Source: an uncultured Acidobacteriota bacterium (GTDB lineage Bacteria > Acidobacteriota > UBA6911 > RPQK01 > JAPXNP01). Taken from it: DNA of 64,000 nt. The position numbers were made by a program, and so were the translations under genes. Below, piece after piece: positions 15,249 through 28,053 of the stretch. The notes below the pieces were generated by a model. It was given only the letters and a program-made list of their open reading frames with translations, was not told the DNA's origin and did no database searches. Location: positions 96,001-160,000 of the forward strand of contig CAVZRV010000029.1 of NCBI GenBank assembly GCA_963777605.1, read 5' to 3'. The number at the start of each line of letters is the position of its first letter. Position 1 is the stretch's first letter.

Positions 15249-15643
15249 TGAGACTATCTCCTTGGATGAGTTGAAAAACCTGGACGAATTGGATGCGTCT
15301 GGACGGAGATTGAGGCGATCGGTGGAGAGCCAGGGACGCGATTATCGGCTGGATTTCTGGTTCCTGGTCCGGTGCCAGACGTGGATGAGTGATGATCACA
15401 GGATCGGCGCCGGGCGGGCCCCTGAAGGGGGCCTGTTTCCAGCCCAGGCATTTGCCTGGGTTACGGTCCACCCATCAAGAATCCAGCCCTGAAAGGGCTG
15501 AACACCTCGTCGGACGAGGTGAATCGGGCGCGACCTTACAGGCCGCGATCGAAGTGCCGGGACCACAGACCCAGGGTAAATCCTGGGCTGAAACCAAGGA
15601 CGCTCAGCGCCACGTCCAGTTTCACTCTTTGAATGGTCCGGCG
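15249..15643. repeat. Solo copy of the ~390 bp non-coding REP-bearing element (MITE/REPIN-like)
   Basis: Near-identical to 25877-26270; bounded by TGAGACT...AGTTTCA; internal palindromes GCCCCTGAAGGGGGC, CCCAGGCATTTGCCTGGG, GCCCTGAAAGGGC, CCCAGGGTAAATCCTGGG. Confidence 0.9.
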
Positions 15644-23609: not shown

Positions 23610-24952
23610 TAAACGACTCCAATCCTTTCCAGCAAAGAGGTTCCGTAACGGCCATCCACAAACTCGGGGCTGTCGATGATCTTTCGGTGGAGAGGAATGG
23701 TAGTGTCGATGCCCTCAACGATAAACAGGTCGAGCGCCCTTCGCATCCGGGCGAGGGCTTCTGTTCGGTCCGCCCCATAAGCGATCAATTTGGCAATCAG
23801 GGAATCGTAATGGCTCGATACGATCCAATCCTGATAGGCGGTTGAATCAACCCGGACTCCAGGGCCGCCCGGTGGGTTGTACGCGGTGATCTTCCCCGGG
23901 GAGGGTCTGAAATTGGCGGGATTTTCAGCGTTGATCCGGCACTCGATGGCGTGGCCCTGGAACTTGATTTCGTCCTGGGTAAAGCTCAGCGGTTGTCCGG
24001 CGGCGATCTTGATTTGCTCTTTTACGATGTCAACGCCGGTGACCATCTCTGTAATCGGATGCTCGACCTGGATCCGGGTGTTCATCTCGATGAAAAAGAA
24101 GTCACCCGACTCGTCGAAGAGGAACTCCACTGTGCCTGCGCTCTGATAGCCGATCGCACGCATTGCCTCGACGACCCGCGATCCGAGGTCGGCACGAATT
24201 TCCGGGGTCACTACCGGGCTCGGAGTCTCTTCGATCAACTTCTGATGGCGGCGTTGAACCGAGCACTCCCGCTCTCCCAGGTGCACGACGTGCCCGTGCT
24301 CGTCACCCAGGACCTGGAATTCGATGTGTCTGGGATTAACCAGGTAGCGTTCGATGTACACGGCTGATGAGCCGAACGCACTCAACGACTCCGACTGAGC
24401 GGTGTCGAGCGCATCCTGGAGGTCAGCCGGCTTCCGAACGATTCGCATCCCGCGCCCACCTCCGCCTGCCGCTGCCTTGATGATGAGCGGGAAGCCAATC
24501 CCGGCGGCGATGTCATCGAGTCGCGCGGAGGCATCGTCGTCGAGGAGGTTGGAACCGGGAATGATCGGCAGGCCCGCCTCGAGGACCATCTGTCTCGCCT
24601 TCGCCTTGTCGCCCATCGTCTCGATGGCTTCGGGTGTCGGGCCAATGAACTTGATCCCGCAGGTTTCGCAGACTTCCGAGAAGTACGCGCTTTCCGCGAG
24701 GTAGCCATAGCCGGGGTGAATGGCATCGACGTTGGTGATCTCGGCCGCGCTGATAATGCTCGGGATGTTCAAGTAGCTCTCGTAGCTCTTGGCGGGACCG
24801 ATACAGATCGCTTCGTCGGCAAAGCGGACGTGCAGGCTGTGGCGGTCGGCATCCGAATAAACGGCTACCGTGCTGATTCCCAACTCCTTACACGCACAGA
24901 TGATTCTCAGTGCGATCTCGCCGCGGTTTGCGATCAGGACTTTCTTGAACAT
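23609..24952 (-). CDS. accC: Acetyl-CoA carboxylase biotin carboxylase
   Basis: [48 protein letters not shown]. Confidence 0.97.
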
Positions 24953-24958
24953 GGTGCG

Positions 24959-25429
24959 TCACGCCGACTTTGAAAGACGAATCTTGAACAATGGTTCGCC
25001 ATATTCTACCGGCTGGCCGTTTTCAACCAGGATAGTGACGATCTCACCGGAAGCGTCGCTTTCGATCTGATTGAAGATCTTCATTGCCTCGATAATGCAC
25101 ACAACTGAGTTCTTGGTTACGTAGTCTCCAACCTGGACGAACGGCTCGGCGTCCGGTTTCGGGGTCAGGTAGAAGGTGCCGACAATTGGGGCCTTGAAAA
25201 CGTACAGGTCCTCTTCTGGTTCCTTGGCAGGAGCGGCTGGTTGGGTTCCAGCAGCCTGGGGTGCACCCGCAGGAACAGCTGGCGAGGCGGTCACCTCGGA
25301 CCCTGCCGAAAGGTGGGCGGGTTTAGAGTTCCGGATCCTGAGCCGGACTCCTGCTTTTTCCATCTCGAACTCCTCGATTCCAGAGTCTTGAATCAGTCCG
25401 AGCAGTTCTTTGATTTCCTTTATATCCAT
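24959..25429 (-). CDS. accB: Acetyl-CoA carboxylase biotin carboxyl carrier protein
   Basis: MDIKEIKEL, APIVGTFY, EAMK biotinylation motif. Confidence 0.96.
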   Translation of the reverse strand: MDIKEIKELLGLIQDSGIEEFEMEKAGVRLRIRNSKPAHLSAGSEVTASPAVPAGAPQAAGTQPAAPAKEPEEDLYVFKAPIVGTFYLTPKPDAEPFVQVGDYVTKNSVVCIIEAMKIFNQIESDASGEIVTILVENGQPVEYGEPLFKIRLSKSA

Positions 25430-25466
25430 TGGCTCTCCTTGGAAAACCCGGGAAACGTAAGGGCAC

Positions 25467-25495
25467 ATTGTCGTTAGTCGGGCAAGTTTAGTCAA
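25467..25495 (-). promoter_or_regulatory. Sigma70-type promoter of accB
   Basis: TTGACT-17bp-GACAAT on the minus strand. Confidence 0.55.
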
Positions 25496-25523
25496 GAGTG
25501 GAAGGGTTGTCGGAGCCCGGGCT

Positions 25524-26644
25524 GGCCCCTGAAGGGGGCTGACCTGAAACTTCAATCGAGATGAGTTCCTGGTTCCTGGTTTCTCGTTTCTGGAGGGAAA
25601 GTAATCCAGGCATCCCTGCCTGATATGGCGGCCGGGCAGCTTGCCCGGCGGAAGTGAACCTTCTCAATCCAGGGTTCTTGATTTCCGGGTTCTTCTGAAA
25701 TCGTCCGCCACCGGGACTGAATCGCACTTTCAGTGCTGCATTGCCGTCTTGGCTCCGATTCCCGGGGCGTTGCCGCCGGGCTGGAAATGACCCTGCGCCG
25801 TTGGCGCGCTCATCTGGCGATGCTTCACCCGTTTCACTGATTGAATGGTCCGGCGCCGCCGGGGGCGGGGCTGACCTGAGACTTCAATTGGGATGAGTTG
25901 AAGAACCTGGACGAATTGGATGCGTCTGGACGGAGATTGAGGCGATCGGTGGAGAGCCAGGGACGTGATTATCGGCTGGATCCTGGTTCCTGGTCCGGTG
26001 CCGGACGTGGATGAGTGATGATCACGGGATCGGCGCCGGGCGGGCCCCTGAAGGGGGCCTGTTTCCAGCCCAGGCATTTGCCTGGGTTCACGGTCCACCC
26101 ATCAAGAATCCAGCCCTGAAAGGGCGGCACAGCTTCTCCGGACGTGAAGAATCGGCGCGACCTTACAGGCCGCGATCGCCTTGCCGGGACCACAGACCCA
26201 GGGCAAGCCCTGGTCTGAAACCAAGGCGCCTTCCAGCGCCAGGTCGAGTTTCACTCTCTGAATGATCCGCGGAGGGCGCGGGGGCGGGGCTGACCTGAAA
26301 CTTCAATTTGGAAGAACTGGATGATTTCGACGCGTCTGGAAGGAGATTCGGGCGATCGGTGGGACTCAGAAGCCGTGGCTCTCGGCTGGATCCTGGATAC
26401 CCCGATTTCAGAACGCGAGTGAAAGCGAGCGCGGCTCCGGACGATGGTGAGTCACCAGAAGTGCTGCCGGAGGCCGGAACCGCGGGATGGAGTCAAGATC
26501 CAGGACTGGTAATGGATGAGAGTCGGGAGTAGCGCTCGCTTTCACTCGCGTTCTGAACACCGGCCGCGTGCCAGGTCCGGTCTGACAGGCCCAGTTTCAC
26601 TTTGCGAATGGTCCGGTGGCGCCGGGAGGGGGCTGATCTGAGAC
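25524..26644. repeat. Tandem array of three 330-420 bp non-coding units with conserved joints and variable palindromic cargo
   Basis: GGGGCTGA(C/T)CTGA(A/G)AC at about 25535, 25867, 26286 and 26629; GTTTCACTnnnnGAATG(G/A)TCCG at 25831, 26248 and 26594. Confidence 0.88.
26407..26557. repeat. Perfect 26-bp inverted repeat pair (REPIN-like doublet)
   Basis: TTCAGAACGCGAGTGAAAGCGAGCGC (26407-26432) and its exact reverse complement (26532-26557). Confidence 0.92.
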
Positions 26645-26676
26645 GTTCCCTCCGTTGAGCGGGAAGTGGCCGCGGA

Positions 26677-27141
26677 TCAGATGAATTTCACCTCGGTGGT
26701 GATGTCGATTGCCCTGTGGATTGAACGGTAAATGGGGCAGTGATCCTGGTGAACTGCATGCACTCGTTCGACTACCTCCACCTGGTCGGAAGCTCCCTTC
26801 AGGTGGTAGGTCACGTGAATCCGTCTGACAACCAGGACCCCTTTCTCGGTTTCAACTTCGCCGGTTGTCTCCGAGACCAGTTTTCCACCGCTTGCGTCAA
26901 TATTGCGCGCTTCCAGCGCGCCCCCGAAGGTACCGGTCAGTCAGCCGGCCGCCGCGGCAACCAGGTAATCGATGGTCGTCGCGTTGGCAGGGAATTCGGC
27001 TGGGTTAACTCCGTAGTGCCGGGCGATGGCCCCGTGAACGCCGAAGCGGACGGCTTCCGGCTCTCCGGGTAGGTAAGCGAGGCGCAGCGGACCTCGTAAA
27101 CGTTCAATGCGGACTTTCGACACGTAAGTCACTTCGGACAT
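26677..27141 (-). CDS. OsmC-like selenoprotein (154 aa, Sec67 encoded by UGA)
   Basis: DYLVAAAAG-U-LTGTFGGALEAR...HQDHCPIYRSI; frame continues 87 codons past the TGA at 26941-26943; downstream hairpin. Confidence 0.85.
26905..26940 (-). promoter_or_regulatory. Putative bacterial SECIS element
   Basis: GCGCGCT-GGA-AGCGCGC hairpin (26905-26921) with a G-containing loop about 26 nt 3' of the in-frame UGA. Confidence 0.6.
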
Positions 27142-27257
27142 GCGAGTTGCTCCTTTGGGATCCTTGGCTGTGACGCGTTGGTTCCCAGTCTATGCCTCAG
27201 AACCAGAAGCTTCCACCTGGACCACTCCCTCGGGTTCGGAATCCCAGCCGCCTCCGG

Positions 27258-27434
27258 GCCTAATCCTCATGTTCTCCAGGTCGCCGAGCGAGGCCCGTAG
27301 CGGACCATTACCCGGACATCGTCACGACCTCGTTGAATTCTCTGAGCTTCTTCCCCGTAGAAGGCCTGGCGGACCTGCCGGGCCAGGTTGAGCTGGGAGA
27401 GGCTCAGGGCCTCGGCTTCCGGCTTGAGCTTGAG
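27258..27434 (-). pseudogene. Internal fragment of an RND (AcrB/CzcA-type) efflux permease
   Basis: LARQVRQAFYGEEAQRIQRGRDDVRVMVRY, then frameshifted SLGDLENMRIR; only about 60 codons of a roughly 1000-aa protein. Confidence 0.7.
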
Positions 27435-27531
27435 TGCAAAACAAAACTGCTGGATCTTCTTTGAACCCTTACGCAAGCTGGTATAGCCTTTCTTTCAGGT
27501 CTTTACTTCAGAGTCACGGGAGGGTGTTGGG

Positions 27532-28053
27532 ATGAAGAAAGCTTTGATTCTCGTTTGCGTTTGTGGGTTTGGTCTGCTCTTGGGACAGGGAAATCAGCGT
27601 GGGACTGCAGGCGTGGTTTTGGGTGATGCCAAGGTCGAGATCGAGTACGGTCGTCCTCTCCTCAATGGACGGGACTGGTCCGGAGTGGAACTCGGGACGG
27701 TTTGGCGCCTTGGTGCCAACAATGCAACAACGTTAACCACGGACCGGAACCTGACCATCGACGGTGTCGCCGTCCCGCCAGGGACGTACGCGCTTCTCGC
27801 GAAGAAGGTTGGGTCCGACGCGTGGGAACTGGTCGTCAGCAAGGACGTGAATGTCGCCGGGAACCAGCGTGACCCCGATCTCGACCTGGGCTCGGTACCA
27901 TTGACGAGCAGTCGACTGAACCAGTCGGTTGAGCAGTTGACCATCAGATTTCGGAAGACCGGCCAGGAAACGGCTACGATGTACGTCGAGTGGGGCGACT
28001 CGGCTTTGGCGGCTCACATCATAGCGGTTTCGGGTCTTCCCGAAGGTTCGTAG
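27532..28053 (+). CDS. DUF2911 family exported protein
   Basis: Signal peptide; IEYGRPLLNGR, VWRLGANNAT, PGTYAL, VEQLTI. Confidence 0.8.
   Translation: MKKALILVCVCGFGLLLGQGNQRGTAGVVLGDAKVEIEYGRPLLNGRDWSGVELGTVWRLGANNATTLTTDRNLTIDGVAVPPGTYALLAKKVGSDAWELVVSKDVNVAGNQRDPDLDLGSVPLTSSRLNQSVEQLTIRFRKTGQETATMYVEWGDSALAAHIIAVSGLPEGS

Follow-up and report, generated by a model that had tools for sequence, protein, structure and literature searches.

The array of palindromic repeats between accB and an OsmC/peroxiredoxin-like gene in this uncultured Acidobacteriota bacterium very probably consists of three non-autonomous IS110-family elements (MITEs) that were serially inserted at one AG-core site by a bridge recombinase acting in trans, and we are confident that the class of explanation is selfish DNA of a known kind. 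Direct support comes from the shared ends, the boundaries, the copy numbers, the matches between guides and ends and the homology of the cargos; RNA expression, circles, trans mobilisation and the order of events are what we infer from the sequence.

Within the window, the whole 64,000-nucleotide stretch of DNA that was analysed, the array is the minus-strand reading of three units of 332, 419 and 343 bp, lying about 110 bp upstream of accB in the same orientation and 43 bp from the stop of the OsmC/peroxiredoxin-like gene (Table 1). An initial annotation, made from the letters alone, had described palindromic joints beginning at 25831, 26248 and 26594 and, near 25535, a right half, and the sequence bears these out, together with the palindromes that it listed and a perfect 26-bp inverted repeat in unit 3, which is the core of 36-nt arms that are 92% complementary. 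Its first two spacings agree with the core-to-core distances (332 and 419 bp), and the third is 343 rather than 342 bp. The related left flank that it noted is also present, with 55 nt shared at 80% by units 2 and 3 and shortened in unit 1. What had to be moved are the ends: the TGAAAC/GTTTCA motifs taken as element termini are sub-terminal repeats, the true boundaries are the CT core (plus strand) at 25539, 25871, 26290 and 26633, and the G-run left of 25539, assigned to a right half-joint, is REP-like target flank and no part of a joint. The idea of a carrier with shared ends that stacks head to tail and holds REPIN-like palindromes thereby survives with its ends redrawn. All three units have the right end AGGTC-AG, and unit 3 is the most diverged. 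An Rfam scan of 24500–27700 gave no family at threshold and one chance match (E 4.5), the joints lack a common fold (z of −2.7, −2.5 and +1.2 on the plus strand), and an ORF spanning the array (25730–26098) was set aside, having no Pfam family. Two other features of the window deserve mention. The OsmC/peroxiredoxin-like gene has one in-frame TGA, at codon 67 (context AAAAG*LTGT); such proteins usually carry cysteine at that position, and on its sequence the gene is a likely selenoprotein candidate. A second, solitary copy of the unit 2 type (B415) lies at 15249–15643 on the plus strand, about 90% identical to unit 2 and with decayed ends.

Table 1. Features of the array and its flanks, in window coordinates
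Feature	Position	Strand	Basis
accB (biotin carboxyl carrier protein)	24959..25429	-	Pfam PF00364, E 6e-21
Right target flank, REP-like palindrome remnant	25517..25538	.	96% identical to palindrome within unit 2
Core dinucleotide, right boundary of array	25539..25540	-	AG in IS sense, CT on plus strand; multi-copy relatives
Unit 1, non-autonomous IS110 element, family A332	25541..25870	-	8 delimited copies; nearest copy 97.9% identical
Unit 1 right end, donor pentamer AGGTC	25541..25554	-	Right-end motif
Unit 1 palindromic cargo	25600..25812	.	BLAST copies genome-wide
Unit 1 left end	25831..25870	-	GC hairpin ~25850-25863; distal patch 25843-25849; sub-terminal repeat 25831-25835
Core, joint 1 (unit 2 right end / unit 1 left end)	25871..25872	-	
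Unit 2, non-autonomous IS110 element, family B415	25873..26289	-	20 delimited copies; nearest copy 95.7% identical
Unit 2 cargo, REPIN-like repeat	26036..26240	.	78% over 208 nt to Y1-flanking repeats
Core, joint 2	26290..26291	-	
Unit 3, non-autonomous IS110 element, family D350	26292..26632	-	3 delimited copies; nearest copy 85.3% identical
Unit 3 cargo, inverted-repeat doublet, 36-nt arms	26407..26557	.	76% identical copy in G014
Core (26633-26634) and left target flank	26633..26644	-	AGATC, 2 mismatches to target guide
OsmC/peroxiredoxin-like gene	26677..27141	-	Weak TIGR03563 match, below cut-off

Both ends of the window units recur on 1652-bp units in long arrays on two other contigs, C8 and C24, and this larger unit encodes an intact 458-aa IS110 recombinase with PF01548 and PF02371 domains (NF033542 221 bits, cut-off 140). 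The HUH mobiliser proposed in the initial annotation is thus displaced, the carrier ends being those of an element with an IS110 DEDD recombinase. Copies of this recombinase are the only four DEDD_Tnp_IS110 matches in the genome, and a tblastn search of 74 unit interiors was significant only in the four autonomous units. D27, E75, D112, D115 and S347 lie within the expected motifs, and we take their catalytic roles to be those known from IS621. Similarity to IS621 itself (PDB 8wt6) is weak (E 2e-5), and the nearest named relatives come from a Bryobacterales genome. The gene runs in the window's minus sense, with its stop abutting the right end and about 250 non-coding bases preceding it. An earlier reading of TTCAA as IS200/IS605 ends was given up after the IS110 unit was found.

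The array on C24 holds 15 units, and that on C8 is interrupted by low-quality sequence; the two are a single locus assembled twice between the same genes. Their flanks are about 93% and their IS copies 99.5% identical, with four extra B415 units in C24, a difference that may reflect strain variation or an assembly error. In our set of loci, L001 (G000:C8:329335-336555) is the C8 version, with long homopolymer artefacts, and L002 is the version on G000:C24.

A BLAST search of the whole assembly (6.7 Mb) gave 664 matches to the array, at a depth of about 27–155 over most of its positions versus 1–2 over the flanking genes. With an iterated joint profile we found about 195 left-end sites in the genome, which excludes that the joint occurs only here, and a 16-bp right-end motif gave 117 sites against none in 1.76 Mb of shuffled DNA. 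Of these right ends, 62 continue straight into a left end and 55 are terminal. Pairing of ends delimited 74 units that fall into 25 clusters, nine with at least two members, ruling out one decayed tandem or a single cargo throughout; at least seven multi-copy clusters lack a transposase. The three window units do carry different cargos, as the initial annotation held, but each belongs to a multi-copy family and none is unique. AG stands at both ends, conservation on the right side ends at the core, and the commonest right end is AGGTC-AG (39/117, versus 33). The longest arrays reach 15 units. Unit orders differ between arrays (B>A and A>B, C>B and B>C), consistent with serial insertions that were independent of one another. 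Beyond the two big arrays, an element follows 32 of 55 motif-matching right ends, compared with 19/164 intergenic and 1/420 genic motif sites, counts that rely on crude gene calls made for this analysis and may be inflated because composites could move as blocks. The same joints occur in three of the 401 genomes sampled, namely G029 (35), G256 (7) and G276 (16). G029 mixes IS and mini units with unrelated interiors, and G276 has joints and no recombinase match at E<=1e-60.

Several units are larger. Those at C7(-) 734272-736471 and C31(-) 291656-293584 and a second 2.2-kb unit measure 1.9–2.2 kb and have no IS110 gene; what lies between their left and right ends may be further inserted DNA or cargo genes. 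Among the 55 terminal right ends, the core overlaps the stop (TGA/TAA) of a predicted opposite-strand gene in 13, compared with 16 of 586 motif sites, and five more provide a stop 5 nt on. Either of the common target variants reads as a stop, and an insertion there therefore restores one; we did not retain stop-codon targeting as an explanation, since the enrichment is inseparable from purifying selection.

The cargos raise the question of what moves them. A Y1 transposase gene (G000:C7:1122691; IS200/RAYT type, 150 aa, NF033573 58 bits, cut-off 55), which stands singly amid palindromic repeats, has on both sides repeats that share 78% identity over 208 nt with the cargo of unit 2. The genome has nine PF01797 matches, and the unit 1 module at 25600–25655 often stands alone, with 41 of its 91 genomic copies more than 500 nt from any element end. 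All this would suit units that are REPIN composites moved by Y1/RAYT-type transposases, with the IS110 ends merely frequent neighbours, a reading that we nevertheless regard as most improbable. The unit boundaries are IS110 ends, common to the recombinase unit and to families of unrelated content; the Y1-flanking repeats match only the interior of unit 2 and not the element ends, which also led us to reject REPIN/RAYT as the whole unit; and the eight Y1 loci compared gave no joint and a single cargo match. Copies of the remaining cargos lie mostly near element ends (42/47, 51/60, 42/46 and 17/23). The unit 1 module and the unit 3 doublet are both present in G014, a relative without joints, and this, together with the stand-alone copies, indicates that the palindromes are REPIN-like passengers, which the ends may have captured or which may have inserted into a shell. 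The likeness to REPIN–RAYT systems is therefore one of cargo, short palindromic doublets of which one flanks a Y1 transposase gene; unlike in those systems, the palindromes ride inside IS110 ends and are not the moving unit of the array.

The position of the array between two co-oriented genes, and a master array whose C8 and C24 versions differ by four units, might instead suggest a host-domesticated cassette array, an integron-like platform, decoy or source of structured RNA kept for a function at accB. We consider this very improbable. Copies are scattered over the genome and many are decayed, 38 of 51 arrays are single units, no Rfam family reached threshold and the joints share no one fold. 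Relatives with an accB match had no match to the array next to it, and in G014 the neighbouring gene sits on a different contig. An empty array site was not found among 40 relatives; even the nearest are of different genera, and their matches are confined to accB, cargo or short pieces. Four contig sets from DNA sequencing runs likewise matched only short stretches and yielded no joint across the array, a result with no bearing on the reading. Nothing tested supports the decoy or host-RNA role raised in the initial annotation, and its recombination platform would stand only in that each joint is a reusable IS110 site. By eye, the outer motifs of the joint read GTT...AAC, opposite to their order in an integron attC, and IS110 accounts for the boundaries. 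A CRISPR array was rejected on intervening segments that are 280–370 bp long and multi-copy, with no match to an Rfam CRISPR repeat.

The core AG was fixed by multi-copy relatives at 51–58% protein identity. Aligning the region upstream of the gene in 14 sequences predicts a consensus fold with a closing helix and two arms supported by compensatory pairs, and each arm carries a 7-nt guide with the core at its end. In 14 of 15 distinct families the second (donor) guide equals the element's own right end, against a permutation mean of 1.7 and maximum of 7, five loci having no call and truncated loci being skipped. The first (target) guide is the same as the logo of the left flanks in a Bryobacterales relative (n=48) and fits that of the array's genome, C-ARGTY-AG (n=26, with the core called from the element side). 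Right of the core there was no conservation among the 55 terminal ends and no detectable right-target preference. In the autonomous element the target and donor guides are identical, AAGTC-AG, with guide and right end AAGTCAG in 4/4 copies; such identity occurs in 2 of 15 families. The commonest targets and ends (AGGTC) have a one-base mismatch to the present target guide, which suggests that some of the work fell to other guide variants that may since have been lost. A 415-bp family (six delimited copies) contains the whole predicted bridge RNA and no recombinase remnant. Its target guide is that of the autonomous element and its donor guide is AGGTC-AG, matching its own right end (AGGTCAG in 6/6 copies) and the right ends of the window units. 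Two of the copies are found away from the master array and are 99.5% identical to their nearest copies, and the module could provide guide RNA in trans. A further subgroup of the clade, on Proteobacteria plasmids (L219–L231), has an AA core and the A-run target guide TAAAA-AA; its flanks resemble another IS, interrupted at the A-run.

Taken as a working model, a minimal element would comprise a 16-bp right end (GTTTC, a 5-nt donor and AG) and a left end of about 45 bp made up of a hairpin, a distal patch and GAAAC, leaving the middle free to pick up REPIN-like palindromes. Recombinase would come from the 1652-bp IS110 on C8/C24, and guide RNA from that element or the transposase-less 415-bp module. 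Targeting would read a 5-nt left target plus the core, with no detectable requirement on the right. With a target guide that is the same as the donor end (AAGTC-AG, or its one-base variant AGGTC-AG), both boundaries and every joint would remain usable targets, yielding mixed head-to-tail arrays in which every inserted element probably creates a new target for the one that follows. A joint has the same sequence as a circle junction, and contigs cannot separate the two.

Stacking could also arise in the same elements by donor–donor (half-match) recombination or by insertion at the left junction, with the identical target guide incidental, and we give this a substantial though minority share of the probability. 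IS621 is reported to recombine on donor-only half matches (10.64898/2026.08.31.748434), and the boundaries of IS110 repeat units to retain left-donor-only matches (10.64898/2026.08.14.744561). The Bryobacterales relative (L003–L069, a MAG with about 50 copies of a related IS110) has differing guides, yet at least 3 of its 49 right ends run into a left end, indicating that identical guides are not required for stacking. Short duplications of its own 3' end, from an internal CCAG, follow 12 of 49 right ends, and a duplicate of the last 15 bp follows 3 of 49; by their sequence both kinds look like natural half-match products. In 24 of 25 families the two bases that follow the target guide agree with the first base of the left end, making the left junction a good target in any family, and entry at a resident's left junction would yield the same joint. 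Against this alternative, the window's right-end unit is the youngest and its left-target unit the oldest by identity to the nearest copy, but over ten arrays the last unit is the more conserved in only 6. The other identical-guide family, a distant one at 43% identity (L095 and L107, in G262), likewise sits beside copies of its own ends; a stretch of its left end is held in common with the A box of ISPpu9.

A second patch in the left end may also be read by the donor loop. From 113 loci, 34 were parsed and dereplicated to 25 families (where the left-target match is circular, having been used to call the end). The sub-terminal repeat lies 33–38 nt from the core in 22 of these, and a hairpin is predicted between the two, with shuffle p<=0.1 in 16 of the 25. 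Just beyond the hairpin, the left end holds a segment identical in the same sense to the 5' side of the donor loop: the mean longest match is 5.36 versus 3.54 when permuted (0/5000), and 4.73 versus 3.21 in the 15 families unlike the array's. No reverse-complement signal to this distal left-end window appeared in the 25 families, and three other offsets gave no clear signal (69, 361 and 259 of 1000). Contrasts between sister pairs came out six for, three tied and three against. In a held-out set of 14 plasmid loci, the original motifs called no families; allowing AA as well as AG at the core gave calls for 10 of the 14, nine of them in one AA-core subgroup. There the pre-set 11-nt window gave 3.6 versus 3.25, reached by 918 of 10000 permutations (p~0.09), and a post-hoc 16-nt window 4.7 versus 3.97 (213/10000, p~0.02). 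The patch, CATTCA, is 85–99% conserved in the genome's RNA-less minis, among ends found with a profile that contains it. RNAalifold pairs the patch with bases that follow the donor guide, compensatory changes being absent, and this intramolecular pairing may be a second role of the patch. A box C/D-like RNA motif on the plus strand (TGAATGA...CTGA) was rejected, both of its motifs being complements of guide-matched patches and varying with them across families.

One model would have a single strand of the donor junction form a stem, an internal loop and a hairpin, with the two donor guides reading that strand. The match would also be accounted for if RNA and end had arisen from one sequence by duplication, or if a protein binds the motif. 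Single-stranded circles are reported for IS621 (10.64898/2026.08.31.748434) and top-strand excision for CazIS110-1 (10.1101/2025.10.25.684509), a target stem-loop aids ISPpu10 (10.64898/2026.03.19.712850), and mutation of the ISPpu9 hairpin did not abolish circles (PMC12288879). We put forward only tentatively, as doubtful when all its parts are taken jointly, the fuller proposal of an IS110 clade with a non-canonical bridge RNA that reads its target through a 5-nt left guide plus core and its donor through two same-strand patches, the second 20–27 nt into the left end past a conserved hairpin, as if in an attC-type single-strand fold; with a self-matching target guide and a guide-only module, it would be a three-part system of recombinase element, guide module and cargo shells, growing arrays that hold the REPINs of a different transposase.

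Several features place the array in the IS110 group: a cognate DEDD recombinase element with the same ends, a short AG core at both boundaries with no longer target duplication, window units without a recombinase gene, and a predicted two-loop bridge RNA in the long left end whose left target and donor guides match DNA. Opposite-strand right target and donor guides beside the core were not seen by inspection. The IS1111 group, characterised in PMC11208160 and 10.1101/2024.04.26.591405 by a downstream RNA region and 7–17-bp repeats, was rejected, as the non-coding region here is upstream of the gene and the repeat is 5–8 bp. IS621, as described in PMC11208160, resembles our element in its DEDD and Tnp domains, its long left end with a two-loop RNA and its left target and left donor guides that covary with DNA. 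It differs in recombinase length (328 aa, versus 458 here), and in our element the core is AG, the left guides span 5 nt and the core, right guides next to them were not found, and the sub-terminal repeats are asymmetric, 5 nt and 33–38 nt from the core.

The direct precedent is MITEPpu9 (the ssr9 module) with the IS110-family ISPpu9 in Pseudomonas putida KT2440 (PMC12288879). MITEPpu9 is a transposase-less module with near-identical boxes that follows the IS head to tail or stands alone or in duplicate, and circles have been demonstrated in that system. The AG core and 16-bp right box are shared with our elements, and theirs has a 43-bp left box with a palindrome. End geometry also agrees, the core lying 35 nt from the sub-terminal repeat in Table S2 for ISPpu9, whose B' box departs from B in the 5 nt that precede AG; by this geometry ISPpu9 seems to belong to the same clade. 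MITEPpu9 is one mini family of eight copies; here the transposase-less multi-copy clusters number at least seven and the left ends about 195, and the longest arrays reach 15 units. ISPpu9 targets REP with a conserved right flank, whereas here there is no right-flank preference and the target guide equals the donor end; and, unlike MITEPpu9, the minis of the array's genome mostly carry REPIN-like cargo and no RNA. In the passages covered, that paper gives no guide mapping and does not present Ssr9 as a bridge RNA.

In the expanded IS110 loci of 10.64898/2026.08.14.744561, non-coding units (468 cases) or whole IS copies (437 cases) accumulate in tandem at a single site, with at least 95% identity required between units and left-donor matches only; its authors hold that IS110 insertion does not regenerate the target. 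Here, the units belong to unrelated families, have both ends and are scattered over the genome, and the right end recreates the left target. The clade is possibly covered by the 86 bridge-RNA models of 10.64898/2026.10.21.760802 or by Extended Data Fig. 10 of PMC11208160, and further IS110-related literature includes PMC13626964 and PMC8450116. In the literature searched, with figures and preprint supplements outside its scope, we found no identical target and donor guides, REPIN-carrying IS110 minis or distal same-strand donor patch; what would be new relative to that literature is that the guides are self-matching, that a guide-only module has a donor specificity of its own, and that the donor may be read in a non-canonical geometry.

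For genome annotation, these results indicate that such 'cassette-like' arrays are selfish DNA, neither integrons nor CRISPR. Bridge recombinases are under development as genome editors, for which donor reading and off-target insertion are open questions, and this genome, where one recombinase and two predicted guide RNAs meet about 195 left ends and 117 right ends, is a natural experiment. It shows which end features persist in the absence of an RNA gene and provides a ready-made minimal donor of about 60 bp. If a self-matching guide does drive stacking, it would be a simple route to a self-renewing landing pad, and such a pad would run counter to the published view, in which the target is destroyed by IS110 insertion. 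Should the distal patch prove to be a real guide, the IS621 rules of donor recognition would fail for this widespread clade.
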